64,000 nt of DNA. It comes from Lachnospiraceae bacterium. Lineage in GTDB: Bacteria > Bacillota > Clostridia > Lachnospirales > Lachnospiraceae. The stretch covers positions 70,533-134,532 of the forward strand of contig JAJQDE010000061.1 of NCBI GenBank assembly GCA_021202335.1, read 5' to 3'. A program made the position numbers and the translations under genes. Under the pieces are notes generated by a model, which saw only the letters and a program-made list of their open reading frames with translations, did no database searches and was not told the origin of the DNA. This document shows, one piece after another, positions 7,904-27,884 of the stretch. The stretch's first letter is position 1, and every line of letters begins with the position of its first letter.

Positions 7904-7957
7904 AAAACAAGCTTTGTCGGTTCTGCAAATTTGAGTAATAATGGAGGATTATGGCGG

Positions 7958-8626
7958 ATGAGCAAGAAGGAAATTTTTAAGTATCTGATTGAGTCAAATT
8001 CAAGCATCTCAGTATATCAGGTGGTGTTTGCGATGCTGGCGGCGCTTGTGCTGGGGCTGTTTATGTATTTTATGTATCGGAAAACCTATTCAGGGGTCGC
8101 ATATTCCAAGAGCTTTAACCAGACATTGGTGCTTTTGGCAGTGATTGTTACGATGGTCATGACAATTATAGGGGGAAGCCTTGCGCTTTCGCTCGGCATG
8201 GTAGGCTCTTTGTCCGTAATCCGTTTCCGCACCGCCATAAAGGAGCCTAAGGACATGGCATTCCTTTTTTGGGCGATTGCGATAGGGCTTTCCTGCGGCG
8301 CTGAAATGTATGTGGTGGCTGTAGTCGGAAGCGCTGTCATAGCAATACTGCTCCTGTTTTTCAGGAAGGACGCGTATGATGGAAACACATATCTTATTGC
8401 GGTGCGGGGAAATGCGCTTGACAGCGGCGCGATAGAAAAGCTTATCGGTGAAAACACAAGAAGCTGGAAGCTTCGCATGCGCAGCTCCACAGGGGAGTAT
8501 GACGAAATCACCTATGAGGCGGGATTGAAGAAAAGTAATGCTTCGGAGCTTGCAAGGGCATTGAGGGAAATTGATGGGACAGACGCGGTGAATGTGGTGA
8601 CATATACGGGAGAAGTCATAGGCTGA
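7958..8626 (+). CDS. DUF4956 family membrane protein
   Basis: About four TM helices with LALSLGMVGSLSVIRFRTAIKEPKDMAFLFW, plus a soluble ACT-like C-terminus. ATG 7958 behind GGAGG. Confidence 0.88.
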   Translation: MSKKEIFKYLIESNSSISVYQVVFAMLAALVLGLFMYFMYRKTYSGVAYSKSFNQTLVLLAVIVTMVMTIIGGSLALSLGMVGSLSVIRFRTAIKEPKDMAFLFWAIAIGLSCGAEMYVVAVVGSAVIAILLLFFRKDAYDGNTYLIAVRGNALDSGAIEKLIGENTRSWKLRMRSSTGEYDEITYEAGLKKSNASELARALREIDGTDAVNVVTYTGEVIG

Positions 8627-10782
8627 TGAGAAAAAACATTTTATCAGGGGTTTGGAGAATTTTAATCATTGCGGTACCGCTTGCCGTGACAGCGGCGATG
8701 ATATATGTAAGGGCATCGCAGCTTCAGGCGTATGGCGAGAAGGGAACGCACCTTTTGATAAACGAGGTTGTGGCGGACAACCTTTCCACATTGAAGGACG
8801 GGAATGGCGTGTATTCGGATTGGATTGAGCTGTACAATCCGACGGACCATGCGATAAGCCTAAAGGGCTATTATCTGTCGGACAGCAAAAATGAGCTTAC
8901 AAAATGGGCGTTTCCCGACGTAAGCATTGACAGCGGCGGGTATTTGATTGTTTTTTGCGACGCGGGGGAAGGCCTTCTGCATGCGAATTTTTCCATAAAC
9001 TCAGATAAGGAAACCATTTACTTAAGTGATGAGAATGAAAATGTGACAGACAGCATTAAGCTTGAAAATCAGCAGTGCGACATTTCATATGGAAGGACAT
9101 TCGGAAATTATGATGAAACGGGATTTTTGCCGTACTGCACGCCGGGAGCGGCCAATCCGTCGTATTTTGGCAGTAGCGACCCGGCATATGCTGACTGGGG
9201 AGAGGTCTGCTTTTCCCTTGACGGCGGTCTGTATGATGAAAGCATACAGGTGGAGCTTTACTGTGATATAGAGGGCGCGGCGATAATCTACACACTTGAC
9301 GGGAGCGAGCCGGACATCGGCAATGCGTATATTTACGACAGGCCGATAGAGATTACCGACGAGGGCAGACCAAATCAATACACGACAAAAAAATGTCTGG
9401 TGCGGCCAAGCAGCAACGCGGATAATGCGGACACTGTATACGGCGTAAACGAAGTGTACAAGGGAACCGTAATTAGGGCAAGGATATTAAAGGATGCGAA
9501 GCTTTCCTCCTCCATACAGACCAACACGTATTTTATCAATTCGGATTATTCAATGCCTGTTGTGTCGCTTTCCACCGATCCGGACGGGCTGTTTGACGAT
9601 GTGGAGGGTGCGTATGTGCTGGGATATACCTACTACACGATGCGAAAGTACGGGGTGAATACAACACGCGCAAACAGCGGTATGCAAAAGGATTTGGCAG
9701 GGCACATAGAGATTTACGGTACGGACGGCAGCGTGTTTGAGGATGATGTGACGTTTTCAATTGCGGGCGGCTCAAGTGTCAGGACGAATCTGCAAAAGAG
9801 CTTTAACGTGATTTTGGAAAACGAAAGCATATCGGGAGATATGTTCGGGGCTTTGGCGGCAGTGGAATACGGACGTTTTACCCTGCGCGGACCGGGAAGC
9901 GGCGTGGTGCAGAGAAATAAATATGTCTATCCGAGCGCGTTTGTTTCCAACTATATCAGCGGCGAGGACACGGGCGGTCAGAGCAGCCGGTATTGCCTCC
10001 TGTTTATTGACGGGGAATATTGGGGCATATACAGCCTTATGGAGCCAAAAGGCAAGGAATACATGAGTGTGCTTACGGGCGCATCGAAAAAGGATATTAC
10101 AATCGCCGCACCATATGACGACATTTATGACGATGAATTTGACGCGCTTTTTGACGGGATAAAAAACCATGATTTTAGCAAAGCGGAAAGCTACGAGTGG
10201 ATAAAGACAGAGATTGACATGGATAACTATATGGCGTGCGTGCTCGCGGAGGCATTTTTCGGAAATACGGATGGAATCAGCAACGGCGACCATAATCTGT
10301 ATATATGGAAGGAAGCCGGCGGATTGTGGAAATGGCAGATATTTGACTTTGACGCTACAATGGTGGATAATGAGAACTATATCAGAGAGATGATAGAGTT
10401 TGATTATTTGGACAGCGAGCATGAGGAAAAGAAAAGCTTCACATCGTGGCTTTTCGGGAAGCTTTGGGAATCTGAGGAGTTTAGGGAGGATTTTACGGCA
10501 TATGTGAGGCGGCAATGCGAAGGGCTTTACAGCAGGGAGAATGTGACGGCGGCGTTTGAGGAGCATATTTCTCAGCTGCAGCCGGAAATTCAGGAAAATC
10601 TTCTTCGGTGTGAAATGGATTACACTGCTCTTAAAAAGCTGAGCTTTTGGATAAGGGGCATAGACGCCGAATATGAAAATTACACGATGGAGGACTGGGA
10701 GATTACAGTCAGCGACATGCGCAGATTTTTGGAGAACAGAACAAAGCGCGTGCTGGAGTTTTTGGATGAATTGGGGGTTTGA
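8626..10782 (+). CDS. CotH kinase family protein with lamin-tail and chitobiase/FN3-like domains
   Basis: TM anchor, then LTD (LINEV..DN..D.DWIELYN, NFSI), Ig-like (IIYTLDGSEP) and CotH core (QKSF, LFIDGEYWGIYSLME, HNLYIWK, WQIFDFD). TGATG coupling to DUF4956. Confidence 0.85.
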   Translation: MRKNILSGVWRILIIAVPLAVTAAMIYVRASQLQAYGEKGTHLLINEVVADNLSTLKDGNGVYSDWIELYNPTDHAISLKGYYLSDSKNELTKWAFPDVSIDSGGYLIVFCDAGEGLLHANFSINSDKETIYLSDENENVTDSIKLENQQCDISYGRTFGNYDETGFLPYCTPGAANPSYFGSSDPAYADWGEVCFSLDGGLYDESIQVELYCDIEGAAIIYTLDGSEPDIGNAYIYDRPIEITDEGRPNQYTTKKCLVRPSSNADNADTVYGVNEVYKGTVIRARILKDAKLSSSIQTNTYFINSDYSMPVVSLSTDPDGLFDDVEGAYVLGYTYYTMRKYGVNTTRANSGMQKDLAGHIEIYGTDGSVFEDDVTFSIAGGSSVRTNLQKSFNVILENESISGDMFGALAAVEYGRFTLRGPGSGVVQRNKYVYPSAFVSNYISGEDTGGQSSRYCLLFIDGEYWGIYSLMEPKGKEYMSVLTGASKKDITIAAPYDDIYDDEFDALFDGIKNHDFSKAESYEWIKTEIDMDNYMACVLAEAFFGNTDGISNGDHNLYIWKEAGGLWKWQIFDFDATMVDNENYIREMIEFDYLDSEHEEKKSFTSWLFGKLWESEEFREDFTAYVRRQCEGLYSRENVTAAFEEHISQLQPEIQENLLRCEMDYTALKKLSFWIRGIDAEYENYTMEDWEITVSDMRRFLENRTKRVLEFLDELGV

Positions 10783-10804
10783 GCGAGAAAGGGGTATTGT
10801 TAAT

Positions 10805-11929
10805 ATGACAATTAAGTGCAATGTTTTGGACCGACAATTTCAGATGCACCAAAGCGAATATGAGGAGGCAGCCTTAAGGGTGCTCCGTTCGGGCTGGTAT
10901 GTGCTTGGAAACGAGGTCGCAGCGTTTGAGGAGGAATTTGCCGCATACACGGGGAGAAAATACTGCGTCGGGTTAAATTCCGGGCTTGACGCGCTTATTA
11001 TGTCCGTGCGCGCGCTGGGCATAGGCGAGGGCGATGAGGTCATCGTGCAGTCAAACACCTATATCGCGACAGTGCTTGGGATTACGGAAAATAAGGCGAC
11101 GCCCGTTTTCGTGGAGCCGGACGAATACTTTAACATGGATGCGGAAAAAATCGAACAGGCAATTACGCCAAAGACAAGGGCGATCATGGTTACGCATTTA
11201 TATGGGCAGGCAAGCAATATGGAACCGATTGCCCGGATTGCGAAAAAGCATCATTTAGAGCTGCTTGAGGACTGCGCGCAGTCGCACGGCGCGTGCTTTG
11301 AAGGCAAAATGACGGGAAGCTTTGGCATTTCCGGCTGCTTTAGCTTTTATCCGACCAAAAATCTCGGCGCCTTTGGCGACGCGGGCGCGGTGGTGACGGA
11401 TGATGAAGGGCTTGCGGATGAGCTTAGGATGATGAGAAATTACGGCAGCCGCGTCAGATATTATAATGAAATAGAAGGACTTAACTCAAGACTCGACGAG
11501 CTGCAGGCGGCATTTCTGAGGATAAAGCTGAAATATGTTGACAATCTTAATAGTGAGAGAAGGGCTCTTGCTTTGGCATACGATACCGGCATCAAAAATG
11601 ATAAAATTGCCCTGCCGAAGGTTCGCCCCGGCGCGGACAATATTTGGCATCAGTATGTGGTACGCTGTGGGGAGCGTGACAGATTGCGGCAGTATTTACA
11701 GGAGAACGATATCCAAACGCAGATTCATTATCCTATACCGCCGCATCTTGCCGAATGTTATCGGCATTTAGGGTATAAAAAGGGCGATTTTCCTATAGCG
11801 GAGCGCTATGCGGATGAGGTCTTAAGCCTTCCCATCTACACGGGCATGACAGGGGCGGAGCAGGACTATGTTATTGAAAAATTAAATAGTTTCAGCTTAA
11901 TGAATTCTGAAAGGGAGAATTGTGTATGA
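10805..11929 (+). CDS. fdtB: DegT/DnrJ/EryC1 PLP aminotransferase, dTDP-3-amino-3,6-dideoxyhexose transaminase type
   Basis: LEDCAQSHGA, SFYPTKNLGAFGDAG, GLNSRLDELQAA, LSLPIY. Next to a cupin 3,4-ketoisomerase. fdtB versus qdtB cannot be resolved from sequence. Confidence 0.85.
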   Translation: MTIKCNVLDRQFQMHQSEYEEAALRVLRSGWYVLGNEVAAFEEEFAAYTGRKYCVGLNSGLDALIMSVRALGIGEGDEVIVQSNTYIATVLGITENKATPVFVEPDEYFNMDAEKIEQAITPKTRAIMVTHLYGQASNMEPIARIAKKHHLELLEDCAQSHGACFEGKMTGSFGISGCFSFYPTKNLGAFGDAGAVVTDDEGLADELRMMRNYGSRVRYYNEIEGLNSRLDELQAAFLRIKLKYVDNLNSERRALALAYDTGIKNDKIALPKVRPGADNIWHQYVVRCGERDRLRQYLQENDIQTQIHYPIPPHLAECYRHLGYKKGDFPIAERYADEVLSLPIYTGMTGAEQDYVIEKLNSFSLMNSERENCV

Positions 11930-12354
11930 ATATAGAGGATTGCAGGCTGCTGGAGTTTCCGCAGAGGGGCGATGAGCGGGGGCATCTTGTTGCAATAGAG
12001 GGCTGCGGGGATATTCCCTTTGAAATCAAGCGCGTATTTTATATTTATGGTTCCGACAGGAACGTTGTGCGCGGGCGGCACGCGAATAACAATTCGGAGT
12101 TCGTGCTGATAAACGTGTCCGGTACGTCAAAGGTAAAGGTCGACGACGGCAGAAAAACTAAAATATTTGATTTGGACAGACCGCATATCGGCATCTATCT
12201 GCCGCGGCTCGTTTGGAAGGATATGTATGATTTTTCAGAGGATTCCGTGCTGCTTTGCCTGTCAAGCGAGCATTACGACGCCGGGGAGTATATCAGAGAT
12301 TACGACAGCTACCTGGAGATTATGAAAAAGCATTGGGAGGAAGAAAATGCTTAG
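11926..12354 (+). CDS. fdtA: dTDP-4-keto-6-deoxyhexose 3,4-ketoisomerase (FdtA/QdtA cupin)
   Basis: DERGHLVAIE, IPFEIKRVFYIY, RGRHA, LLCLSSEHYD..EYIRDY. ATGA overlap. Confidence 0.88.
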   Translation: MNIEDCRLLEFPQRGDERGHLVAIEGCGDIPFEIKRVFYIYGSDRNVVRGRHANNNSEFVLINVSGTSKVKVDDGRKTKIFDLDRPHIGIYLPRLVWKDMYDFSEDSVLLCLSSEHYDAGEYIRDYDSYLEIMKKHWEEENA

Positions 12355-12835
12355 ACGGCTTGAGGAAAAGGATGCGCCGCTGATGCTGGAGTGGATGTAC
12401 GACAGCGAAATCAATTGCAATTTTAGAGCGGATTTTGCCTCTGCCACATTGGAGAGCGCAAAAGAATTTATACGCGGCAGTTTTACTGATAAAGACATGA
12501 ACTTTGCTTTTGTTGATGAAAACGACGAGTACATGGGGACAATAAGCTTAAAGAATATTTCATATGAGGATAGCAGCGCCGAGTATGCGGTAGTCGCAAG
12601 GAAAAAGGCGCAGGGCACGGGAGCTGCGATGAGGGCGACAAAGGAGCTTCTTAATTATGCCTTTGAGAAACTTAAGCTCCACAAGGTATACCTAAACGTG
12701 CTCGAGGAAAATGTGAGGGCGCAGAGGCTGTATGAAAAGTGTGGCTTTGTCTGCGAAGGAAGCGCTGTCGACGCGGTGAAAATAAAGGGAGTGTATAGGA
12801 CGCTTAAGTGGTACGGCATAATAAATGAAAGATGA
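12347..12835 (+). CDS. GNAT N-acyltransferase (PseH/RimL-like), probable sugar N-acyltransferase
   Basis: GNAT motifs AQGTGAA, VYLNVLEENVRAQRLYEKCGF. Overlaps fdtA. Confidence 0.75.
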   Translation: MLRRLEEKDAPLMLEWMYDSEINCNFRADFASATLESAKEFIRGSFTDKDMNFAFVDENDEYMGTISLKNISYEDSSAEYAVVARKKAQGTGAAMRATKELLNYAFEKLKLHKVYLNVLEENVRAQRLYEKCGFVCEGSAVDAVKIKGVYRTLKWYGIINER

Positions 12836-12839
12836 AGCT

Positions 12840-12939
12840 CTGATGAAAAAAGTCAGATGCAATGATAAAGAAAAGCAGTGAAAGAAAAGGAAAGGAAACC
12901 GGAATATGACAGCGGAAGAAGTGACTGACCGGATTGCAG
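12840..12939 (+). repeat. ~100 bp imperfect direct repeat, copy 1
   Basis: Shares identical 15 bp (aaagaaaagcagtga) and 27 bp (atatgacagcggaagaagtgactgacc) blocks with 15045-15147, both at an offset of 2208 bp. Confidence 0.9.
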
Positions 12940-13022
12940 AGATATGCGGGCAAAATTCGGTGGAGGAGGCCTGGTTATTCGGCTCGTGCGCAATCGGGAT
13001 TTTTCGGATTCCTTTGTGCTGA
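12906..13022 (+). pseudogene. Truncated minimal nucleotidyltransferase (MNT, HI0073-type antitoxin) remnant
   Basis: Manual translation MTAEEVTDRIAEICGQNSVEEAWLFGSCAIGIFRIPLC* holds the MNT LFGSxAxG motif and stops after 38 codons. Confidence 0.7.
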
Positions 13023-13336
13023 GTGGGACAAGTGCAAAATTTTGCATAACGTTTGAATTGGCATGGAAGGTCATGAAGGATATATTGGTGCAGTATTATG
13101 CGATTACGGGGTTTGTGACGGGTTCCCCCAAGGAGGTATTAAAACAGTCTTTTAAGACATATCTGATAACGGACGGCAGATGGCTTGATATGCTGAGGGT
13201 CAGAAATGAACTGTCGCATGATTATGATGATGCGGTTATCAGAGCTCATTGCGGGAATATTATTGGTATATATTCGGATTTATTTACAGACTTGGAAGAA
13301 AGAGTTGATAAATTATTGAGCAATCCCGCCGGGTGA
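12944..13336 (+). CDS. HEPN/HI0074-family nucleotidyltransferase substrate-binding protein, N-terminally deleted/chimeric
   Basis: FCITFELAWKVMKDIL, GSPKEVLK, WLDMLRVRNELSHDYD (R-x4-H). The first ~20 codons are an alternative frame of the MNT remnant. Confidence 0.75.
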   Translation: MRAKFGGGGLVIRLVRNRDFSDSFVLSGTSAKFCITFELAWKVMKDILVQYYAITGFVTGSPKEVLKQSFKTYLITDGRWLDMLRVRNELSHDYDDAVIRAHCGNIIGIYSDLFTDLEERVDKLLSNPAG

Positions 13337-13381
13337 ATTGACCCGATTTTGAATATGTAAAACAAGGGGGCTGGAACAGGG

Positions 13382-15070
13382 ATGAAACCGGCTGCATTAG
13401 GTATAACGAAATTTGAGGATATCGTAAACGAAAATGTATTTTATGTTGACAAGACATATTTTATACGGGAGTGGCTTGCCGGCAGTGACCGCGTAACGCT
13501 TGTCACAAGACCGAGACGTTTCGGAAAGACACTGACATTAAATATGGTGGAAACCTTTTTTTCCAAAGCATATGAGGGCAGAAGCGACCTGTTCGAACGC
13601 TTTGATGTATGGAAGGACGAGAAGCTGCGCACTATGCAGGGGCAATATCCCGTGATAAACCTGAGCTTTGCTGATGTGAAGCAGGACAGCTACGAGAGCA
13701 TGACGGCAAAGATGAAACGGATTATTTCGACGTTGTATAAGCGGCATAGGTATCTGCTCGATTCGGACAAACTAAGTAAGGATGACAAGGCTGTATTTAC
13801 GGCGTATCTTGAGAGAAAAGCGACGGATGAGGAATGTATGGAATCACTCTTAAGGCTGTCGGAATATATGCATATTCATTTTGAAAAGCCGGTCATAATT
13901 TTGATGGACGAATACGACACGCCAATGCTCGAGGCATACACGGCAGGCTATTGGGATAAGGCAATCGTCTACATCCGCAGGATGTTTCACGCCACCTACA
14001 AGGATAATCCAAACCTTTTCAGAGGTCTAATGACGGGAATTACAAGAATAACGCAGGAATCCGTATTTTCTGATTTGAATAACGTTGCGGTAGTGACGAC
14101 TACTACCGAGCTTTTTGAAACGAGCTTTGGGTTTACTGAGGATGAAGTCCATGATGCGTTAAGAGAGTATGGGTTGTATGAGAAAAAGGATGAAGTCAGA
14201 CGGTGGTATGACGGCTTTAGGTTTGGCAGGAGGTCTGATATATACAATCCGTGGTCTATAATAAATTTCCTGAAATTTGGGAAATTTGAGCCATATTGGA
14301 TGAACACAAGTGGGAATGGACTGGTAGGAAAGCTTTTGCGCGAAGGTTCGGTTGATGTTAAGAATGATTTTGAAAATCTCCTTAACGGAGGGACAATCTG
14401 CTCCGAGATAGATGAGGCGATAACCTATGCGGAGCTTTCGGGGGCTTCAAAATCCATATGGAGTTGGCTTGTTACGACGGGCTATATCAAAATAGTGTCT
14501 GAGCAGACACCGTGCTATGAGCTTGCGCTCACAAATTATGAGGTGCGGCTTGCTTTTGCAAAGCTTGTAAAAAAGTGGTTTGATGGGAGCTATGACAATT
14601 ATAAGGGGCTTATGCGCAAGCTTTTGGAGGGTGATTTGGAAAGCCTGCAGTATTATATGGAAAAGGTGACGCGGCAGACCTTCAGTTTTTTCGACGTTGG
14701 AAACGAATCGACGGAAACGGAGAGGACAGAGCAGTTTTATCACGGTTTTACGCTTGGACTGATAGCTGATTTAAACAATACGCATGTCGTTACCTCAAAC
14801 CGTGAGAGCGGTTTCGGAAGATACGATGTGTGCATAGAGCCGAATGACGTGTCTAAGGACGGTATTATTATAGAATTTAAGATATTTGACCCCAAAAAGG
14901 AAAAGACGCTTGAGGAAACGGCGCGCCGTGCGTTAAAGCAGATAGAGGACAGAAAATATGAAACGGCGCTTAAAGCTAAAGGGATAAAGACTGTGCGCAG
15001 ATACGGTTTTGCTTTTAAGGGTAAGGAAGTGCTTATAATGGAGGCTGATGAAGAAAAACGTCAGATATAA
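13382..15070 (+). CDS. AAA-ATPase-like / PD-(D/E)XK nuclease (PDDEXK_9) protein
   Basis: YVDKT, Walker A RPRRFGKT, Walker B ILMDEYD, YNPWS, YWMNTSGN, EQFYHGF, SNRESGFGRYD, IIIEFK, ALKQI. Confidence 0.9.
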   Translation: MKPAALGITKFEDIVNENVFYVDKTYFIREWLAGSDRVTLVTRPRRFGKTLTLNMVETFFSKAYEGRSDLFERFDVWKDEKLRTMQGQYPVINLSFADVKQDSYESMTAKMKRIISTLYKRHRYLLDSDKLSKDDKAVFTAYLERKATDEECMESLLRLSEYMHIHFEKPVIILMDEYDTPMLEAYTAGYWDKAIVYIRRMFHATYKDNPNLFRGLMTGITRITQESVFSDLNNVAVVTTTTELFETSFGFTEDEVHDALREYGLYEKKDEVRRWYDGFRFGRRSDIYNPWSIINFLKFGKFEPYWMNTSGNGLVGKLLREGSVDVKNDFENLLNGGTICSEIDEAITYAELSGASKSIWSWLVTTGYIKIVSEQTPCYELALTNYEVRLAFAKLVKKWFDGSYDNYKGLMRKLLEGDLESLQYYMEKVTRQTFSFFDVGNESTETERTEQFYHGFTLGLIADLNNTHVVTSNRESGFGRYDVCIEPNDVSKDGIIIEFKIFDPKKEKTLEETARRALKQIEDRKYETALKAKGIKTVRRYGFAFKGKEVLIMEADEEKRQI

Positions 15071-15147
15071 TGAGAAAGAAAAGCAGTGAGGGAAAATGAA
15101 AGGAACTCGGGATATGACAGCGGAAGAAGTGACTGACCAGATTGCAG
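15045..15147 (+). repeat. ~100 bp imperfect direct repeat, copy 2 (includes second MNT-start remnant MTAEEVTDQIAG..., 15114-15170)
   Basis: Direct comparison with 12840-12939. Confidence 0.9.
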
Positions 15148-15176
15148 GAATGTATGACAATGGAGTATAAGAGGAA

Positions 15177-16001
15177 TTGAGGAAATATATTAAAAAAATA
15201 ATAAATCTCCCTAAAAGAATATATCGCGGCATAGAGGGCAGCAGGTACCGCAGGGGAAAATATCGAAACAGCATATCAGTGCTTTCGGCGTCGCAAACGA
15301 TTGATAAGCTTTTGGAAGCGCAGTGCAGCTTCTGCAGGTTTGGCGATGGGGAAATTGCGGTTATGAGAGGAGAAGGGATAGCCTTTCAAAAGGCGGACAG
15401 AGGGCTTGGCGAGCGCCTTTTGGAAATCCTTCAGTCCGAGGATGAGGGGCTTCTTGTGGGGATAAATTATTTTTATCTGAACCCCGTGACAGGAGTAAAC
15501 GGATTTACCCGGAATTTTTTGAACTGTCTTCAGATGCAGCGGAGATTTTTGATAAAAAACTGCAGTAAAAAGAGAACCTATATTGACGCTGCGATTACGC
15601 AAATGTATCAAAACTATAACGAATATGATTTTGACGCTCATTTTAAAAGGCTCCAAAAGCTTTTTGAAGGCCAAAAGGTTGTTCTTATCTGCGGCGAAAA
15701 CGTTCTGAGTGACATCAGATATAATGCGCTTGACGTTTGCAAACAGATCCAATACATTTACGGACCGTCAAGGGATGCATATGACCGGCATGATGAACTG
15801 TTAAAAAAAGCGCTTGAAACGGACAAGGATTTTATCGTCTGCGTTATACTCGGACCTGAGGCAAAGGTCTTGGTTTATGATTTGTTTAAGCATAACAGAA
15901 TTGCCTGGGATATCGGGCACTATTTGAAGGATTACGATTCATACATGCGGCAGCAGCCGCGGACGGATGCCGCAATAGAGCAGTTTTTTAAGCCCGATTA
16001 A
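15177..16001 (+). CDS. GT-D fold (DUF1792) glycosyltransferase
   Basis: FCRFGDGE, VILGPEAKVLVYDL, AWDIGH motifs. TTG start. Confidence 0.8.
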   Translation: MRKYIKKIINLPKRIYRGIEGSRYRRGKYRNSISVLSASQTIDKLLEAQCSFCRFGDGEIAVMRGEGIAFQKADRGLGERLLEILQSEDEGLLVGINYFYLNPVTGVNGFTRNFLNCLQMQRRFLIKNCSKKRTYIDAAITQMYQNYNEYDFDAHFKRLQKLFEGQKVVLICGENVLSDIRYNALDVCKQIQYIYGPSRDAYDRHDELLKKALETDKDFIVCVILGPEAKVLVYDLFKHNRIAWDIGHYLKDYDSYMRQQPRTDAAIEQFFKPD

Positions 16002-16006
16002 CAAAC

Positions 16007-16045
16007 TTAGCCGCTCCCTGCGGTCGTGACGTGAGGTGAACAATG
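16007..16045. repeat. Dispersed ~40 bp element containing SD and start codon (copy 2)
   Basis: ttagccgctccctgcggtcgtgacgtgaggtgaacaatg matches 6014-6053. Confidence 0.65.
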
Positions 16046-17794
16046 TATAAAAAGATAAAATATATTTTAGACAGAGAACAAAAAATAAAATTATTTGTCC
16101 TGCTTATTGTCATTCTTGTGGGAGCCCTTGTGGAGCTTTTGGGCGTATCTTCCATTATGCCGCTTATTGATGTGGCGACAAATCCTGACGCAGTGAATGA
16201 AAAATGGTATCTTGTGCTTGTAAGCGATACGTTTGGATTTAGTGAAGTCAAGCAGATTATCGCATTTCTTGCGCTTGTGCTGGTAGGCGTGTATATTGTC
16301 AAAAATCTGTATATCAGCATGATGTACAGTTTGCAGTACAGATTTATTTTTAATAATCAAAGACGGCTTGCCGTGAAAATGATGAATGCGTATATGCACC
16401 AAAACTATCTGTTTCATGTGTCGAGAAATGTCGCAGAGCTTCAGAGAAACGTTACTGAGGATGTAAACGGATTTTACACGGTAGTGTTGAACGCGATGCA
16501 GTTTATCGCGGAAGCGAGCGTATGCATTGTGCTTGTCGTATACCTGATGCGGACCGACGTCATGACTACGCTGGTGGTGGCGGCGCTGGTTTTTGTTTTT
16601 GCAGTGCTGGTGGGTATTGTGTTCAAAAAGACTCTCGTAAAAAAGGGAAAAGAGAACAGGAGCGTCAGCATAAGCCTTACCAAGTGGGTGCTGCAGTCAT
16701 TTTCGGGAATAAAAGAGATTAAGGTCATGAACAGAGAAGGCTTTTTTCTTCAAAATTACGAGAGTACATACCGCAGATTTACGGTATTGCAAAGGCAGCA
16801 GTCAATGCTTACGTTTATTCCACGCCCCATCATGGAAACGGTCTGCGTCGGCGGGCTTCTTCTGACAATGGCGGTTAAGGTATATGTGCTTGATACGGAT
16901 TTGACTGAATTTGTCCCTGCATTATCAGTGTTTGCGATAGCGGCGTTCAGAATGCTCCCGTCATTCAACAGGATTTCCGGTTACATGAGCGCAATGATGT
17001 TCAACAGACCGGCGATAGATGTGCTTTATGATGATCTGGTGGAAATAGAAAAGCTCAATGGAAAAGCTTATGAAGAAAATGGAGCTGCCAAGCCGCTTGT
17101 TATAAAAAACGGCATTTCGATTAAAAACGTATCCTTTCAATATCCTGCTTCGGACAGGCAGGTGCTTAAAAATCTTGATTTAGAGATTAAAAACAACACG
17201 TCCGTAGCCCTTATCGGCGCATCAGGAGCGGGAAAATCAACGCTTGCAGATGTGATACTGGGAGTTTTGGAGCCGCAAAGCGGAAGCATCCTTGTGGACG
17301 GAAAGGATATCAGCCAAAATATGGGCGCATGGCACGCAGCCATCGGCTATATTCCGCAGGCTATATATCTTATGGACGATACAATCAGGGCAAATGTCGC
17401 GTTTGGAATAGAGGAAGGTAAGATAGATGAAGCGATGCTTTGGAAAGCGCTGCATGAGGCACAGCTTGAGGAGTTTGTAAAGGACTTGCCGGACGGGCTT
17501 GATACGATGATAGGCGACAGGGGAGTCAAGCTTTCGGGAGGACAGCGCCAGCGCATCGGCATCGCCAGAGCCTTATATGGAAATCCGCAGGTGCTTATAC
17601 TTGACGAGGCGACATCGGCGCTTGATAATGAAACGGAAAAGGAAGTAATGGATGCGATAGACAGTCTTCACGGTACGAGAACACTGATTGTGATTGCCCA
17701 CAGACTCACCACGATAAGAAAATGCGACAAAATTTACGAAGTGGGAAACGGCACAATCCGTGCAAGGAGTAAGGAAGAGGTATTTGGGGGATAG
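16043..17794 (+). CDS. Half-type ABC transporter (TMD+NBD), PglK/Wzk-like lipid-linked glycan flippase
   Basis: Six TM helices, GASGAGKST, LSGGQRQRIGIARALY, ILDEATSALD, IAHRL. Located in a glycan locus. Confidence 0.85.
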   Translation: MYKKIKYILDREQKIKLFVLLIVILVGALVELLGVSSIMPLIDVATNPDAVNEKWYLVLVSDTFGFSEVKQIIAFLALVLVGVYIVKNLYISMMYSLQYRFIFNNQRRLAVKMMNAYMHQNYLFHVSRNVAELQRNVTEDVNGFYTVVLNAMQFIAEASVCIVLVVYLMRTDVMTTLVVAALVFVFAVLVGIVFKKTLVKKGKENRSVSISLTKWVLQSFSGIKEIKVMNREGFFLQNYESTYRRFTVLQRQQSMLTFIPRPIMETVCVGGLLLTMAVKVYVLDTDLTEFVPALSVFAIAAFRMLPSFNRISGYMSAMMFNRPAIDVLYDDLVEIEKLNGKAYEENGAAKPLVIKNGISIKNVSFQYPASDRQVLKNLDLEIKNNTSVALIGASGAGKSTLADVILGVLEPQSGSILVDGKDISQNMGAWHAAIGYIPQAIYLMDDTIRANVAFGIEEGKIDEAMLWKALHEAQLEEFVKDLPDGLDTMIGDRGVKLSGGQRQRIGIARALYGNPQVLILDEATSALDNETEKEVMDAIDSLHGTRTLIVIAHRLTTIRKCDKIYEVGNGTIRARSKEEVFGG

Positions 17795-17861
17795 GTTTTA
17801 TCCATAATGCCGGATAAACCGGTTATTATTTGGAATATTTTGAAACGCGGGGAAAAGTGTA

Positions 17862-19047
17862 ATGCTAAAGAAACACTTTACATTATTGGTAAGCATATGT
17901 ACAATTTTAAGCATCGGATTTGCATTTATCAATATTGTATATAATGAAACATATATGCTGTTGGTATATGATTTAAAAACCGGATTTACTGATAATGTTT
18001 CATATGCAGTAAGTGCTGCAGTGCTGATAGTTCTGACAGCGATACTTGGGGGGGGGTATATGGAGAATCCTGTTTGGCAGAATACATGTCATTGTGATGG
18101 TTACAATAAGGGGCAGGCTGTTTGTTGCCGCGACGGATGAAGATGATGGAGCCGATATAAATGCTGACAGACGGATAGACCTTGCATTTGTTTTAAATGT
18201 AATATGCAGTGCAGTCATTATTGCCTGCATGACGAATTTCATCGCTTTTTTTACGGAAACAAATATAACGGAAGGTACATGGGGATATCCGAAAACTGTC
18301 GGTCATTCGTTTGGGGCGGCGGATGGATATGACTATACGGGTTCATTGGAAGCTTTCCTATATAACTATAAATTGGGAAGAAGAACGATGGAAGTAGATT
18401 TAATCCTTACAACGGATGACAGGCTTGTGCTCAAACATGATTGGGATACGCCGGAACAGTTCGGGATATCCGAGGATAATCCGCCGGACGAGGAAACCTT
18501 TTTAAACACGAAAATCTTGGGAAAATATACGCCGTTAAGCTTTTCGGGGCTTTGTGAACTTATGGTGGAGTACCCGGATATATGGATTATCACTGATACA
18601 AAAAGCGTGGAAAGTGAAGAAATCAAGAAACAGTTTGCGGTTATGCTTGATACGGTGCACCGGTTAGGGTGCGAAGAAATTTTGGACAGGCTTATTATTC
18701 AGGTATATCATGAGGAGATGTATCAAATTGTAAATGATATATATCGGTTTGATAATTACATTTTTACCATGTATTGGCGGTTTGACAGCGATGATTGGCT
18801 GGAAACTACCAAAGAAGTATGCCGATTTTGCGTAAATAATGGAATAGAAACGATTACGATTGGGACGAATAGGATTTCGCCCGAAATGGAAGCTGTTGCA
18901 GAACGCTATGGAAGAAAAGTATATATCCATACGGTGAACGATCTGCAAAAAGCAGAGCAATATTTCCAAATGGGGGTAACGGGGATATATACCGATATAA
19001 TAACAGATGAGGATTTGCGGCAAAGTAAAACGGGAGATATTAAATGA
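17862..19047 (+). pseudogene. Membrane-anchored glycerophosphodiester phosphodiesterase (GDPD)-like gene split by a frameshift at a G9 tract
   Basis: ORF 17862-18140 (TM helices) and ORF 18046-19047 (GHSFG, EVDLILT.D..LVLKHD, IITDTK, YIHTVN, GIYTD) join at G9 (18048-18056). G8 would give one 394-aa ORF. Confidence 0.75.
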
Positions 19048-20279
19048 AAGAAATTAACCGGGAAAATAGAAGATTTTTAATAGTATTAATAGGAATCATG
19101 CTTATATGGGCGCTAAGCCTTTATCCGTTCAAGTTTGGCGGCTGGAATCAGATCATGCTGGCTTTTTCGTACAGATTTGGATTTATACAGAGGGCGTTTA
19201 TCGGGAGCGTGATTGATGTTGTTTCAACGGTATTTAGGATACCATTGAAATATATGAGATATCTGTATGGAATCAGTACGGTGGGAATATTTACGTTAGG
19301 CGCGCTGCTTATTGTATATAAGGCGTTGATACATGCTGAAGGCGACAATACCGTAAAGTGCTTTTATAAGGGTATGGCGCTGGTGTTTTTTATGGGACCG
19401 GGGTGGTGCACGAATTACAATAATTTTGCACTCACGGATATGTGGCTTCCGATGATTTCATTAATCGGGGTATGGTTTATTCTTAAAGGGAAGCATGTTT
19501 GGATTTCTCTGGCAGCGACTGTTATCTGCGTACTGATTCATCCGGCATATGTTTTTTTATATTTCAATTTGATTTTGGCAGCATTTATATATAAGGAATT
19601 TTTGGCAAATGACAGAACGGATAAAAAAAGCCTTATTTGGCTGGCAATTGTTTTTGCTTTTGGTTCAGTGTTATTTATATATATGATGTTTTTCTCGCAT
19701 GCGCGTGAGGGCGTCACTGCTGATGAAATAATGCAGAGAGCGGCAATTGTTGTCGATAAAAGTGTTGAGGAGATAAGCAACCATGAACCGACTGTAAGAG
19801 GGTATCTGCTGAGGGACGGCGGCGAAAGTGGTGTACAGCTTGTAATAAACAGCTATTGGCTTTTGCTGGCGGTATCGGTTATAATGTTTATGCCCTTTAT
19901 TTTTGAAATCTTTAAATATTGGAAATACGTTTATAAAGAAGCTAAGAGCAATGGAATAAAGAACCACATACTTTACGCCTTGTTGCCGATGGGCGTAGTT
20001 ACGGCTGCGCCAATGTATATTATGCATAATGATTATGGAAGATGGACTTATGCGGTATTTTTCTATGAGTTTGCAATTATTTGGATTTTTAATTTATTGA
20101 AAGATGCGAACGTAAAAAAAGCAACGTATGATTTGATGGAAAGAGTATTTTCGCATAAGGCTTATTATCTGCTGCTGCTTTTTTATGCCGCTGTGTCAGG
20201 ACCATTTCAGCAGAATTTAATTAATCCGATGATTTCAAAGCTGGAAACGCTTGGATGGAAGCTTTTGGGAGTGTATTGA
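19044..20279 (+). CDS. Polytopic membrane protein, probable GT-C/polymerase-like
   Basis: About 10 hydrophobic segments, motifs SYRFGFIQRAFIG, IHPAY, NDYGRW. ATGA overlap. Confidence 0.55.
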   Translation: MKEINRENRRFLIVLIGIMLIWALSLYPFKFGGWNQIMLAFSYRFGFIQRAFIGSVIDVVSTVFRIPLKYMRYLYGISTVGIFTLGALLIVYKALIHAEGDNTVKCFYKGMALVFFMGPGWCTNYNNFALTDMWLPMISLIGVWFILKGKHVWISLAATVICVLIHPAYVFLYFNLILAAFIYKEFLANDRTDKKSLIWLAIVFAFGSVLFIYMMFFSHAREGVTADEIMQRAAIVVDKSVEEISNHEPTVRGYLLRDGGESGVQLVINSYWLLLAVSVIMFMPFIFEIFKYWKYVYKEAKSNGIKNHILYALLPMGVVTAAPMYIMHNDYGRWTYAVFFYEFAIIWIFNLLKDANVKKATYDLMERVFSHKAYYLLLLFYAAVSGPFQQNLINPMISKLETLGWKLLGVY

Positions 20280-20281
20280 TT

Positions 20282-21853
20282 ATGGCTGTGGAGGAAGAAA
20301 CTAATTCAAAAGTAAATATATTGAAACAGGTTATAGTTCAGGTAATAATGTTTATGCTTATATTTCTTACCTGCAGCCTGGTATGGTGCATGGACAACTT
20401 TGGGAATATAGGTATGGAGCAAATTGTTTTCACGCTGAATATGCCTTTAAAGGGAGCATCGACTAATTATTTTTACAGTTACTTTATAAGAGCATTTTTG
20501 CCTGCGATTATTCTGTTTGTGTTGGAGATGTTCCTATGGTTCAAAAAGAAGAAACGGGCGTATATTCTTCAGGCTCAGATAAGAGGTAAAAGCCATGATG
20601 TGCGCTTGTGGCCGATAAGAGTCAGCCCTTTAGCAACAATATTTGTGTTTGCTGTTTGGACATTTGGAATTGTATGTACGGCGGATGATAATTTTCAGAT
20701 ATCAGATTATATAAAAAATCAGTTGGAGGCTTCGGAATTCATAGAAGAAAATTATGTAAATCCGTTGAGTATAGATATTACATTTCCGGATGATAAACCT
20801 AATATAATATGTATCTATATGGAGTCGGCGGAAACGAGTCTGCAGGATTTTGATAACGGAGGATTGATGGATGTAAATGTGATTCCTGAAATGACGGCGC
20901 TTGCCAAAGAGAATATCAGTTTTTCACAGTCAGGACTTATTGAAGGCGCGGCGGTCGCGCCGGGCTGCGGATGGACAATGGCAGGGCTGGTGGCACAGAC
21001 GGCAGGTATTCCCATTAAGCTTTACACATATGGGGATGAGGGCGCTCTGTATAATTCACTGGGAGCTTATAAATCGTTTCTGCCGGGAGTGGTGAGCATC
21101 GGTGAAATATTGGAGGATGAGGGATATCATAACTTTTTCATGGCAGGCTCGGATTTTAGCTTTGGCGGAAGAACAGATTACTTTGAACAGCACGGAAACT
21201 ATACAATATGGGATTTGTATTCTGCGAAAGAAGAAGGGAAAATCCCAGAGGATTATAGCGAGGCCTGGGGCTTTGAGGACGAGAAGCTTTATGAATATGC
21301 TAAGGAAAAGCTGTTGGAGCTTGCAAGCAAGGATGAACCGTTTAATTTTTCCATGCTTACGGTTGATACACATGCAGGGGGAGGGTACCGGTGTGAATTA
21401 TGTCCGGATACGTTTGAGGACAACTATTTGAATGTATGGGCGTGCGCCTCACAACAGGTATATAATTTTGTAGAGTGGATAAAGGAGCAGGAATTTTATG
21501 AAAATACAGTGGTTTATATAGCAGGTGACCATTGTAGTATGGAGAGTGATTTCCTTACGGATTACTCATCGGATAAATTTAACGGAAGTGTTGACAGAAA
21601 AGTTTATAATGTGTTTATCAATGCGAGATCAGCCCCGTTAAAGACGGAGAATAGAAAATTTACAACGATGGATTTGTGCCCGACTGTGCTTGCCGCCATG
21701 GGAGCCGTCATAGAGGGTGACAGGATAGGCTTAGGAGTGAATCTGTTTTCCGATAGCAGCACTTTGGCTGAAATATATGGGTATGACACACTGTTTTCGG
21801 AACTGTCAAAGAAATCTAACTTTTATGATAATGAATTATTATATACAAATTAA
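20282..21853 (+). CDS. LTA-synthase/OpgB-like phosphoglycerol transferase (copy 1)
   Basis: N-terminal TMs, IYMESAE, catalytic Thr in GCGWTMAG, MLTVDTH, AGDH, GLGVNLFS. Confidence 0.85.
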   Translation: MAVEEETNSKVNILKQVIVQVIMFMLIFLTCSLVWCMDNFGNIGMEQIVFTLNMPLKGASTNYFYSYFIRAFLPAIILFVLEMFLWFKKKKRAYILQAQIRGKSHDVRLWPIRVSPLATIFVFAVWTFGIVCTADDNFQISDYIKNQLEASEFIEENYVNPLSIDITFPDDKPNIICIYMESAETSLQDFDNGGLMDVNVIPEMTALAKENISFSQSGLIEGAAVAPGCGWTMAGLVAQTAGIPIKLYTYGDEGALYNSLGAYKSFLPGVVSIGEILEDEGYHNFFMAGSDFSFGGRTDYFEQHGNYTIWDLYSAKEEGKIPEDYSEAWGFEDEKLYEYAKEKLLELASKDEPFNFSMLTVDTHAGGGYRCELCPDTFEDNYLNVWACASQQVYNFVEWIKEQEFYENTVVYIAGDHCSMESDFLTDYSSDKFNGSVDRKVYNVFINARSAPLKTENRKFTTMDLCPTVLAAMGAVIEGDRIGLGVNLFSDSSTLAEIYGYDTLFSELSKKSNFYDNELLYTN

Positions 21854-22297: not shown

Positions 22298-23242
22298 ATG
22301 GATAAATTAAAAAAAGCCATAAAAATATTAGCTGTATTACTGATAGCATTGATTATATTTTTTAAAATAGAGGAAATAGCGGATTGTATTACGTCATTTA
22401 AGGCAAAAGTATTCTCTGTCATGGAAAATCCGGAGAATACAGAAAACTTAAGTTTGACAGATGTTGATTTTTCGGTGTATACACCTCTTGCGGATGAAGA
22501 AGGAGCTTGGTATTGCAATAATCCGATTGTTGCACATGCTGGGGGGGGGTATTATGGGAAAACATATACTAATTGCCTGGAGGCTATGCGGCTGGCTGTT
22601 GAAAATGGGATTAACGTTATAGAGGTTGATATGGTGGTGACTTCGGATAATCAGATAATTCTGAAGCACGATTGGGATGAGGATGAGGACGGAAATGATA
22701 TTGTGCTGTCGCATAAGGAGTTTATGAGTAGTGCTATTGAACGGTTGTATACTCCAATGGATATTTATTCCCTGTTTGAACTGATGAACTCTTATGATGA
22801 GCTTTATATTATTGTGGATGTGAAAGCGCCGCTTGAAGTATATGAGCTTTTGGCTGAGGCGGCGAGGGATACGGATAATCTGGAACTGATGGATCGGTTT
22901 ATCATACAACTGTATACAAGGGACAGTATTTCACAGATTAAGGAGATATATCCGTTTCCGAGTCTGTTATATACTCTATATGTGAGCGGCGACAGGGATT
23001 TCAACGCTATTGCGGCTTTTTGCCTCGAAAATGACATTCACGTCATTACAATGCCCGTCGGCTGGGCAGCCTCTTATGAAGATGAACTCAAGGTGTTTAA
23101 TGAACAGAATGTGCATGTGTATGTCCATACCGTAAATGACATTCAGACGGTAATTGACATGAACGGCAGGGGTATATCCGGATTTTACAGTGATTGGCTG
23201 CGCCCGGAGGACTTGAGAAAAGTGGGACTCTTATCTGATTAG
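22298..23242 (+). CDS. GDPD-like phosphodiesterase with N-terminal anchor (copy 2)
   Basis: AHAGGG, EVDMVVTSD..ILKHD, IIVDVK, YVHTVND, GFYSD. In-frame G9 tract at 22541-22549. Confidence 0.82.
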   Translation: MDKLKKAIKILAVLLIALIIFFKIEEIADCITSFKAKVFSVMENPENTENLSLTDVDFSVYTPLADEEGAWYCNNPIVAHAGGGYYGKTYTNCLEAMRLAVENGINVIEVDMVVTSDNQIILKHDWDEDEDGNDIVLSHKEFMSSAIERLYTPMDIYSLFELMNSYDELYIIVDVKAPLEVYELLAEAARDTDNLELMDRFIIQLYTRDSISQIKEIYPFPSLLYTLYVSGDRDFNAIAAFCLENDIHVITMPVGWAASYEDELKVFNEQNVHVYVHTVNDIQTVIDMNGRGISGFYSDWLRPEDLRKVGLLSD

Positions 23243-26292: not shown

Positions 26293-26324
26293 CATTTGGC
26301 ATTGCTTTTGGAATGGAGGAGTAT

Positions 26325-27884
26325 ATGAAAAAATATGTCAATATAGCGAAAGGCATTGCGATACAGCTGCTCATATTGGCGCTGTTTCTGCTTTATTTCA
26401 GCATGGCATGGTGTTCGGATAATTTTGGAAACATCGGACTGAATGAAATAGTATTTACGCTAAACATGCCGCTTAAGGGGGCAGCAAACTCATATTTTCA
26501 GACATATTTTACGGACGCGTTGCTTCCAACGATTATTGGCTTTGCAATAGAGCTTATATTATATATATTTCCTAAGAAAAAGCGGTATGAGTTAAGCGCC
26601 TGCGTGGGAAGAAGGACATGGAAAGTCAGCATATTTCCGCTAAAGCTGAATGGTTTTATATGGAGCGGAATCATTCTGTTTTGGCTTGTTATAATTGTCA
26701 ATGCGGCAGATGAAAAGTTTAATGTGTATGATTTTATAAGAGACCAGCTGGAAGCATCGGAGTTTATAGAAAACGAGTATGTCGATGCCGCGTTGGTGGA
26801 AATTAAATTTCCGGAGGAAAAAAGGAATCTGATATGTATTTATCTTGAATCGGCGGAATCGTCGTTTCAGGATAAAGAAAACGGAGGGCTTTTAGATGTG
26901 AATATCATACCGGAAATGACAGAGCTTGCGAAAAACAATATAAGCTTTTCACAGTCAGAACTGATAGAAGGCGCGGCGGTTGCGCCATCATGCGGATGGA
27001 CAATCGCGGGGTTGGTTGCACAGACATCGGGACTTCCCTTAAAGCTGTTCAACTTTGATGATGCTTTGGATGGCACTGATAATACCATGGATAAATATGT
27101 ATCATTTATGCCGGGCGCGACGACGCTTGGAGATATTTTGGAACAGGAAGGGTATTATAATTTCTTTATGGCGGGTTCGGATTTTACCTTTGGAGGCAGA
27201 CGCGATTATTTCACGCAGCATGGAAATTATGAAATATGGGATTATAACACTGCGATAGAGCTTGGAAAGATAGAGGAGGACTATAAAGAAGGATGGGGAT
27301 TTGAAGACAGAAAGCTTTATGATTATGCAAAGGAAAAACTTTTGGAGCTTGCGCAGGAGGAGCAGCCGTTTAATTTTTCGATGCTTACGGTTGATACGCA
27401 TACGGGAGGCGGTTACCTGTGCGAGCTGTGCCCTGATACATTTGAAACAAGATATGAAAACGTTTGGGCATGCGCGTCATACCAGTTGAGTGATTTTATA
27501 GAATGGATACAGCAGCAGGATTTTTACGAGAATACAACGATATGCATTTCAGGAGACCACAGCAGTATGCAGGAAGGGTTCCTTACGGAATATGATTATG
27601 ACAAGCACAGGGGGAATATAGAGAGAAAGGTTTATAATGTGTTTATCAATACAGCGTATGAGCCTGTGAATATGAAAAACAGGCAATTCACTACGTTGGA
27701 TTATTTTCCGACTGTTTTGGCAGCCGTAGGGGCGGAAATAGAAGGAAACAGGTTGGGGCTCGGCACCAATCTGTTTTCTGACAGAGATACATTGGCAGAG
27801 GAATATGGTTTTGAGGATATGTTTGAGGAATTGAATAAGAAGTCGAATTTTTATGACAGTGAAATTTTATATCCGGAAAGGTAG
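26325..27884 (+). CDS. LTA-synthase/OpgB-like phosphoglycerol transferase (copy 2)
   Basis: IYLESAE, SCGWTIAG, MLTVDTH, SGDH, GLGTNLFS. Strongly similar to 20282-21853. Confidence 0.85.
   Translation: MKKYVNIAKGIAIQLLILALFLLYFSMAWCSDNFGNIGLNEIVFTLNMPLKGAANSYFQTYFTDALLPTIIGFAIELILYIFPKKKRYELSACVGRRTWKVSIFPLKLNGFIWSGIILFWLVIIVNAADEKFNVYDFIRDQLEASEFIENEYVDAALVEIKFPEEKRNLICIYLESAESSFQDKENGGLLDVNIIPEMTELAKNNISFSQSELIEGAAVAPSCGWTIAGLVAQTSGLPLKLFNFDDALDGTDNTMDKYVSFMPGATTLGDILEQEGYYNFFMAGSDFTFGGRRDYFTQHGNYEIWDYNTAIELGKIEEDYKEGWGFEDRKLYDYAKEKLLELAQEEQPFNFSMLTVDTHTGGGYLCELCPDTFETRYENVWACASYQLSDFIEWIQQQDFYENTTICISGDHSSMQEGFLTEYDYDKHRGNIERKVYNVFINTAYEPVNMKNRQFTTLDYFPTVLAAVGAEIEGNRLGLGTNLFSDRDTLAEEYGFEDMFEELNKKSNFYDSEILYPER

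Follow-up and report, generated by a model that had tools for sequence, protein, structure and literature searches.

Switches that work by slippage within short repeats are textbook for mucosal pathogens (Campylobacter, Haemophilus, Neisseria) and are found in the surface-glycan genes of Helicobacter as well. The closest described systems to the one presented here are the poly-G genes of Campylobacter jejuni (the cj1421/cj1422 O-methyl phosphoramidate (MeOPN) transferases, cgtA and wlaN), in which a 5′ intragenic poly-G of about 8-12 nucleotides lies in a gene for surface-glycan decoration, one-base changes toggle the reading frame, several tracts are present per glycan locus and otherwise identical strains differ. 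We describe a gene of similar design in a 64,000-nucleotide stretch of DNA from a Lachnospiraceae bacterium (GenBank assembly GCA_021202335.1, contig JAJQDE010000061.1, positions 70,533 to 134,532; the whole stretch is referred to as the window), where a run of nine G's splits a gene for a predicted membrane-anchored GDPD-fold protein (17862-19047, + strand) into two open reading frames (ORFs). C. jejuni is an epsilonproteobacterial pathogen with its tracts in capsule, lipooligosaccharide (LOS) and flagellar-glycan loci, whereas the window comes from a Gram-positive-type Firmicute gut commensal, and where the C. jejuni enzymes add decorations the switched enzyme here is a GDPD-fold phosphodiesterase, a putative remover. 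Slipped-strand mispairing within ORFs likewise leads to stochastic ON/OFF switching of phosphodiester or sugar decorations in Haemophilus influenzae and Neisseria (lic1A, lgtA/C/D), although the repeats of Haemophilus are tetranucleotides, the decorated molecule is LOS and not a wall-linked polymer, and the enzymes are unrelated.

With respect to the enzyme itself, the closest described proteins are the GlpQ teichoicases of Bacillus subtilis and Staphylococcus aureus and the GDPD domain of the phage phi812/K spike, which rank among its best matches in fold and profile and share with it the TIM barrel and a presumed catalytic His pair with Glu/Asp metal ligands. GlpQ-type enzymes act extracytoplasmically on wall glycerophosphate polymers, that of B. 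subtilis being an exo-hydrolase of wall teichoic acid. The window protein differs from them in being only 13-21% identical, in having three transmembrane (TM) anchors, an extra conserved N-terminal module and 'GHSFG' in place of 'HRG', and in being encoded within a glycopolymer-modification operon. Two sulfatase-domain genes nearby (20255-21853 and 26313-27884) match phosphoglycerol transferase models. Described enzymes of this kind are GacH/SccH and OpgB/LtaS, which write glycerophosphate (GroP) onto streptococcal rhamnopolysaccharides, osmoregulated periplasmic glucans and lipoteichoic acid; the two sulfatase-domain genes are neighbours of the switched GDPD gene and not the switched gene, and lend it a plausible GroP substrate.

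Among gut commensals, phase variation has to our knowledge been described almost exclusively for the invertible promoters of Bacteroides and the recombinase switches of Clostridioides. In the literature searched we found no GacH-type system with a dedicated phase-variable GDPD partner, and full-text literature searches did not bring up any account of homopolymer phase variation for Lachnospiraceae. One recent review on gut surface polysaccharides speaks of phase variability only in Bacteroides, and a preprint on the Streptococcus pyogenes qim operon, which concerns a modification resembling teichoic acid, names neither a GDPD nor an LtaS-type component. The mechanism would appear, from the tract lengths reported below, to be that of a classical homopolymer contingency switch at the between-sample level; what is new is the setting, namely obligate-anaerobe Firmicute gut commensals, a clade of three-TM GDPD enzymes, and a tract kept at one codon position across species.

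The poly-G tract and its lengths

The features of the window that bear on the tract, all on the + strand, are as follows.

17862-18140, +: 5′ ORF of 92 aa in frame 0, which enters the tract and ends at the TGA at 18138-18140, 27 codons on
18046-19047, +: 3′ ORF of 333 aa in frame +1, overlapping the 5′ ORF at the tract
17862-18047, +: 5′ part of the GDPD gene, encoding the N-terminus, TM1, a conserved short loop and most of TM2
18048-18056, +: poly-G tract, G9 and OFF here; in-frame lengths encode Gly63-65 at the end of TM2
18138-18140, +: premature TGA, reached in the G9 state
18057-19047, +: 3′ part of the GDPD gene, in the +1 frame, encoding the beta-hairpin region, TM3 (fused residues 107-132) and the GDPD TIM barrel (about 140-390)
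22298-23242 (alternative start 22280), +: paralogous single-TM GDPD gene with a second G9 tract, 22541-22549, in frame

The nine G's stand in the context ...GCG ATA CTT GGG GGG GGG TAT ATG..., 187 nt downstream of the ATG of the GDPD gene. The original prediction, made from the letters of the window, had placed a G9 at 18048-18056 between a TM-encoding 5′ ORF and the GDPD ORF and had stated that the loss of one G or the gain of two would restore a continuous 394-aa protein; the coordinates are correct and we arrived at the same frame logic on re-derivation. A tract of G8 (one G less, read as CTT GGG GGG GGT ATA TGG) or of G11 (two more) gives a single frame of 394/395 aa, and G9 and G10 are both out of frame. 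The product of the G9 state is a 92-aa peptide composed of TM1, the loop, TM2 and a 27-aa out-of-frame tail. Apart from the tract the GDPD ORF is intact over its 1.2 kb, free of further stops and indels.

The window has just two G/C runs of at least eight nucleotides, each inside one of the two GDPD paralogues. A first-order Markov simulation of the window yields a mean of 0.53 G/C runs of nine or more per 64 kb and a probability of 0.10 for two or more, and the notion that the tract is remarkable by base composition alone is unsupported (P about 0.1 for two such runs); the weight of the tract lies instead in how it compares with other assemblies. A scan of the window with Rfam gave no match, and a promoter and terminator scan around the GDPD gene gave nothing better than shuffles.

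Within the window's own species the tract is found both in and out of frame. The best protein match (P0001) is 100% identical to the G8 translation of the window gene, and the original prediction's suggestion that orthologues be searched for alternative lengths was borne out by G8 in two near-identical assemblies. These come from the Logan contigs, as which runs X1-X28 were examined: that of SRR15221329 (L001) matches window 7862-20171 without a mismatch in 12,310 aligned columns and with one gap, the missing G of a G8 tract that leaves an intact 394-aa frame, and that of SRR15221326 (L002) has G8 and differs from the window by two single-nucleotide polymorphisms (SNPs) over 7 kb. An independent metagenome-assembled genome (MAG), GCA_965310885.1 (L003), has G9 and the same split ORFs, with 11 SNPs in 2.8 kb (99.6% identical), bringing the tally to G9, G9, G8 and G8, or two ON and two OFF. 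The protein cluster also contains truncated products of 317 and 316 aa annotated by NCBI from an internal GTG/ATG (P0121, P0123); P0121, of 317 aa, is probably the annotation of the window itself, and a look-up gave no recorded contig for it. An exact-pattern scan of Joint Genome Institute (JGI) metagenome contigs for the flank of the window's tract gave no match. In run X2, which holds a slightly divergent strain, one Logan contig breaks off within the first G tract and its successor starts 48 nt on (window 18055-18104), and another X2 contig crosses the second G9 without a gap; the break may reflect mixed tract lengths, or merely low depth (about 4).

In related species, the codons homologous to the tract read as follows.

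Species B (cluster P0011; L006): ACA GGG GGG GGG TAC, G9 in frame
Species C (cluster P0006/P0143; L038-L047): G12 in frame
Species of P0004 (L056): G8 in frame
Species of P0009 (L066): G9 in frame
Species of P0005 (L065): GGA followed by G7
Species of P0003 (L004): GGC GGG GTG GGA, interrupted
Species of P0007 (L005): tract absent

A tract at the same codons is therefore present in five sister species, and a run of at least seven in 6 of 8 close orthologue lineages. The original prediction had named as its contrary case orthologues that lack a long tract and use an internal start; what we find is orthologues with a long tract at the same codons, read through in frame. Truncated members occur on long contigs in the 90%-identity clusters of species B (267 aa) and species C (281 aa), which have the longest runs, and the lengths given next were read in the DNA. 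In species B the full-length protein is encoded on 59 contigs, with G9 where the DNA was read (L006), and the truncated form on at least 13; the nine of these that are shown comprise four of G8, three of G10, one of G11 and one interrupted tract (G5TG4), and only G9 is in frame among G8, G9, G10 and G11. In species C about 16-17 contigs are ON, with G12 in the ten shown of 16 read, and at least 24 are OFF, those shown having G11 (eight contigs), G10 and G14; of the lengths G10, G11, G12 and G14 only G12 is in frame. The 1.2-kb flanks of the tract contain 0-2 mismatches in species B and none in species C. Adjacent run accessions differ (G12 in SRR21424790, G14 in SRR21424789), and a single study of species C provides six samples with G11 and one with G10. 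Clusters whose tract is interrupted (P0003; 9 of 9 full length) or absent (P0007; 7 of 7) hold no truncated members.

As several lengths occur on near-identical flanks, the tract mutates far faster than its surroundings, and the full protein is encoded only by lengths that keep the frame; this pattern is a hallmark of slipped-strand contingency loci. Three of the features by which homopolymer contingency genes are recognised are present: an ORF-internal 5′ run sets the frame, its length differs between near-identical genomes, and ON and OFF states are both common in natural samples. The proposal that the gene is phase-variable and currently OFF, with which the original prediction began, finds support in comparisons between samples of three species. 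Furthermore, third-base identity at four-fold sites between the orthologue species is 35-44%, which is near saturation, and GGG accounts for 21% of the Gly codons in the locus; because of this saturation and the minority status of GGG, the retention of GGG-GGG in several lineages, which are not fully independent, hints at selection for the run itself.

A separate observation concerns one species B contig of coverage 2.8 (L026, 1097-1106), in which the tract is interrupted and out of frame (GGGGGTGGGG). It is possibly a locked-OFF allele, possibly an error that stems from the low coverage.

The predicted protein

The fused protein matches the Pfam GDPD family (PF03009) at a score of 30.8 bits (cut-off 23.6; E = 4e-7), over profile positions 12-240 of 244. 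The AlphaFold2 model of the fused protein, built on 24 homologues, has a predicted local distance difference test (pLDDT) score of 87 and a predicted template-modelling score (pTM) of 0.82, and comprises three helices (residues 2-27, 46-71 and 107-132), the last two separated by a beta-hairpin segment, followed by a C-terminal alpha/beta barrel. The 50 Foldseek matches listed are GDPD-fold proteins, save two entries of one multidomain beta-1,3(4)-glucanase, with a probability of 1.00 and target TM-scores of at most 0.81, and the top matches include B. subtilis GlpQ, the S. aureus lysophosphatidylglycerol phospholipase D and the phage phi812/K central-spike GDPD domain. Residues H148, E177, D179, H192, D193, D245 and K247 are invariant across the 24 homologues and align to the presumed HRG, ExD and HD motifs of the family.

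A search of 5.8 billion protein sequences returned 199 relatives, of which the 12 closest are 57-63% identical, 360-400 aa long and cover 96-98% of the fused sequence; the matched relatives are all from Lachnospiraceae MAGs, mostly of the mouse gut. Upstream of the tract, 23 homologues share a conserved region with the motif NES..L..YD.K.GF.DN, in which L33, D37 and F42 hardly vary. Since the close homologues span both ORFs of the window, the upstream part included, these are halves of one gene, and the comparison indicates that the full-length fused form is the ancestral one. Its product is predicted to be a membrane-anchored GDPD-fold phosphodiesterase with three TM helices, and from the basic N-terminus (MLKKH) and these helices the barrel is predicted to face the outside of the membrane. 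Such three-TM GDPD enzymes form an uncharacterised clade that is genetically paired with GroP transferases, and are possible removers of teichoic-acid-like decorations.

A slippage model and its alternatives

We propose a model for the GDPD gene that accommodates the tract lengths in the window's species and its relatives. The poly-G at codons 63-65 would change in length by slipped-strand mispairing during replication. When the tract is G8 or G11, the full 394/395-aa enzyme would be made (ON), and when it is G9, as in the window, translation would end after 92 aa (OFF). Kept at the same codons across Lachnospiraceae species, the tract would constitute a stochastic, heritable and presumably reversible contingency locus. 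In the ON state the enzyme would strip or trim the glycerophosphate-type decorations added by the OpgB/LtaS-like transferases, and the benefit to the cell would lie in variation of the surface seen by phages or by host antibody. We consider it probable that the GDPD gene is a phase-variable slippage switch of this kind, currently OFF, within a cluster for the modification of a wall glycopolymer; reversibility within a population, and the rate of switching, we infer.

Several points weigh against this model. The tract lengths are consensus calls of assemblies, many from low-coverage metagenome contigs, and the window's species is represented by just four observations. Some of the variation, above all the many G11 calls of species C, could stem from stutter at G11-G12 during library polymerase chain reaction (PCR) or sequencing, and the orthologues that lack the tract, when used as a control, do not distinguish cellular slippage from slippage during sequencing. 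In 5 of 5 instances (the window, three Logan contigs and one X2 contig) the second G9 of the window has the same length, and because it is constant in these five a G9 run is not automatically variable. With regard to the enzyme, the match to GDPD is a divergent one, with Ser149 ('GHSFG') where the canonical HRG motif has Arg, and the NCBIfam equivalog GDPD models score far below their cut-offs. Finally, a product that starts at V78 or M79 would keep TM3 and the whole barrel and might retain some function, and this is the product that NCBI annotated in P0121 and P0123.

The last point favours an explanation in which the G9 allele is not truly OFF, active enzyme being obtained from the internal GTG/ATG (18094/18097; 316/317 aa with a single TM), by slippage of the RNA polymerase or by ribosomal frameshifting, with the tract tuning the amount or the isoform. 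That such an architecture exists is seen from the paralogue, which has one TM followed by the GDPD domain. The TM1-loop-TM2 module that the shorter product would lack is conserved in all close homologues, however, implying that it is needed, and in species B the truncated product that was called starts inside TM3 and would have no proper anchor left. Transcriptional slippage on long homopolymers is established for runs of A or T, which favours the polymerase route, and is generally inefficient on runs of G, which counts against it. The internal start was examined as an explanation and is not supported: no Shine-Dalgarno-like sequence precedes 18094/18097, and no in-frame restart codon lies near 18138-18140. 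A search for RNA runs holding the GDPD gene found none. On balance we regard an active G9 allele as quite improbable. If, on the other hand, the organism were truly G8 and its gene intact, G9 and perhaps other odd lengths would be artefacts of sequencing, library PCR or consensus calling. Runs of eight or more identical bases are prone to error, above all when assembled from long reads, G8 is what the two near-identical assemblies have, many of the OFF contigs of sister species have low coverage (2.8-11), and a -1 stutter at G12 is a typical artefact. Set against this, the L003 MAG comes from a separate sample with 11 SNPs and also has G9, the sister species present lengths of +1, +2, -1 and -2, including a G10 on a 156-kb contig at 11x and a G14, and the second G9 acts as an internal control by reading G9 in both SRR15221326 and SRR15221329, where the first tract reads G8. 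An origin in homopolymer error is in our view unlikely.

Accessory glycan-modification genes are often lost, and plain pseudogenisation, that is an ordinary inactivating frameshift in a dispensable accessory gene with no selected reversible switch, would be in keeping with that tendency. The paralogue at 22298-23242 could compensate for the loss, and the interrupted, out-of-frame G5TG4 of the species B contig L026 would then be a locked-off allele. A decaying gene accords poorly, however, with an ORF that is otherwise undamaged over 1.2 kb, with a single G as the sole difference from the ON strain in 12.3 kb, with a site that toggles in three species through several lengths on near-identical flanks, and with a run kept across lineages whose synonymous sites are nearly saturated, and we judge pseudogenisation to be very improbable.

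Neighbouring genes, other poly-G runs and a possible role of the proposed switch

The genes that surround the GDPD gene most closely are the following.

15177-16001, +: GT-D fold glycosyltransferase (Pfam, E = 5e-53)
16043-17794, +: PglK/MsbA-like ATP-binding cassette exporter of the lipid-linked glycan flippase type, directly upstream of the GDPD gene
19044-20279, +: 411-aa polytopic membrane protein, the ATG of which overlaps the GDPD stop codon (ATGA, 19044-19047)
20255-21853, +: OpgB/LtaS-like phosphoglycerol transferase, a candidate GroP 'writer' (Pfam Sulfatase; NCBIfam phosphoglycerol transferase I, E = 6e-49, below the equivalog cut-off)

The 411-aa membrane protein has no match in Pfam or NCBIfam, and its gene abuts that of the phosphoglycerol transferase downstream. 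Given the overlap at its start codon, the OFF state of the GDPD gene may weaken translational coupling or lower the overlapping downstream genes by polarity. After the phosphoglycerol transferase at 20255-21853 come, in order, a 106-aa membrane protein, the second GDPD, a GtrII-like transferase, a 487-aa membrane protein, the second phosphoglycerol transferase (26313-27884), a 107-aa protein, a second GtrII-like protein and a 713-aa sulfatase-domain protein, and upstream lie genes of a 3-acetamido-dideoxyhexose pathway (DegT, FdtA, acetyltransferase). The segment 20255-29821 contains a duplicated module of phosphoglycerol transferase (532/523 aa), membrane protein (106/107 aa) and GtrII-like protein (519/530 aa), and the Logan contigs break between its two copies. 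A predicted AAA-ATPase/PD-(D/E)XK nuclease (PDDEXK_9) is encoded at 13382-15070, between the sugar-nucleotide and the glycosyltransferase/flippase genes, and in the annotation of L001 an NTase_sub_bind protein lies just upstream of it. Other homopolymers of the window are an A8 at 28282-28289, near the 5′ end of the second GtrII-like gene, an A9 at 1271-1279, a T8 at 6331-6338 and a G7 at 3554-3560.

This gene content indicates that the locus decorates a wall glycopolymer outside the cytoplasm. The prediction that the GDPD ectoenzyme takes off or cuts back GroP-type phosphodiester substituents which the neighbouring transferases attach, and so acts as an 'eraser', was also raised in the original prediction and is drawn from the GDPD fold, the predicted outside topology and the adjacent OpgB/LtaS-like, GtrII-like and PglK-like genes, and we offer it tentatively, as a possible role and not yet a probable one. 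H. influenzae GlpQ scavenges glycerophosphodiesters for choline, and by analogy the window enzyme may possibly scavenge such compounds for the supply of donor; action on lyso-phosphatidylglycerol is a further possible role.

The GDPD gene is not alone in carrying poly-G. In the paralogue, the second G9 of the window specifies the three glycines of 'VAHAGGGYY', which lie beside the catalytic His within the catalytic domain; length variation of this tract (22541-22549) is unsupported, a 273-aa cluster member being accounted for by a different choice of start codon at M42. In the L004 species, the sulfatase/OpgB-like gene that adjoins the GDPD gene carries its own poly-G run (L004 7923-7933; L051-L055, about 1435 / 1865), for which G11 and G12 are in frame (528/529 aa), G13 is out of frame (386 aa) and one allele is interrupted (G10AG). 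Elsewhere a G11 splits two overlapping ORFs of a methyltransferase-like gene upstream of a GDPD orthologue (L011 539-549), and a G8 is in frame in a sulfatase-domain gene (L007 4587-4594). The switch appears to occupy different genes of the locus in different species. The poly-G runs of these loci almost always precede TAT or TAC directly, usually after a T (T-Gn-TAT), as observed in the window (18057-18059, 22550-22552) and in L004, L006, L007, L011, L038 and L056, several of these runs being mutually non-homologous; the runs of L065 and L066 are followed by TTT in place of TAT/TAC.

The presence of poly-G runs in several genes of the locus suggests a multi-gene phasotype system. By extension, poly-G contingency loci could be a conserved and selected strategy of murine-gut Lachnospiraceae, in which runs in the three-TM GDPD 'eraser', in OpgB-like GroP 'writers' and in a methyltransferase would yield a combinatorial mix of surface phosphodiesters within a clonal population, as in Campylobacter, likely shaped by pressure from phages or immunoglobulin A (IgA); to this broader proposal we give somewhat less than even credence.

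If the slippage model of the GDPD gene is true, abundant butyrate-producing commensals would diversify the decorations of their wall polymers stochastically. This would bear on phage host range, on IgA coating and on the persistence of strains. It would also bear on the annotation of MAGs, where such genes now appear as truncated proteins or pseudogenes.

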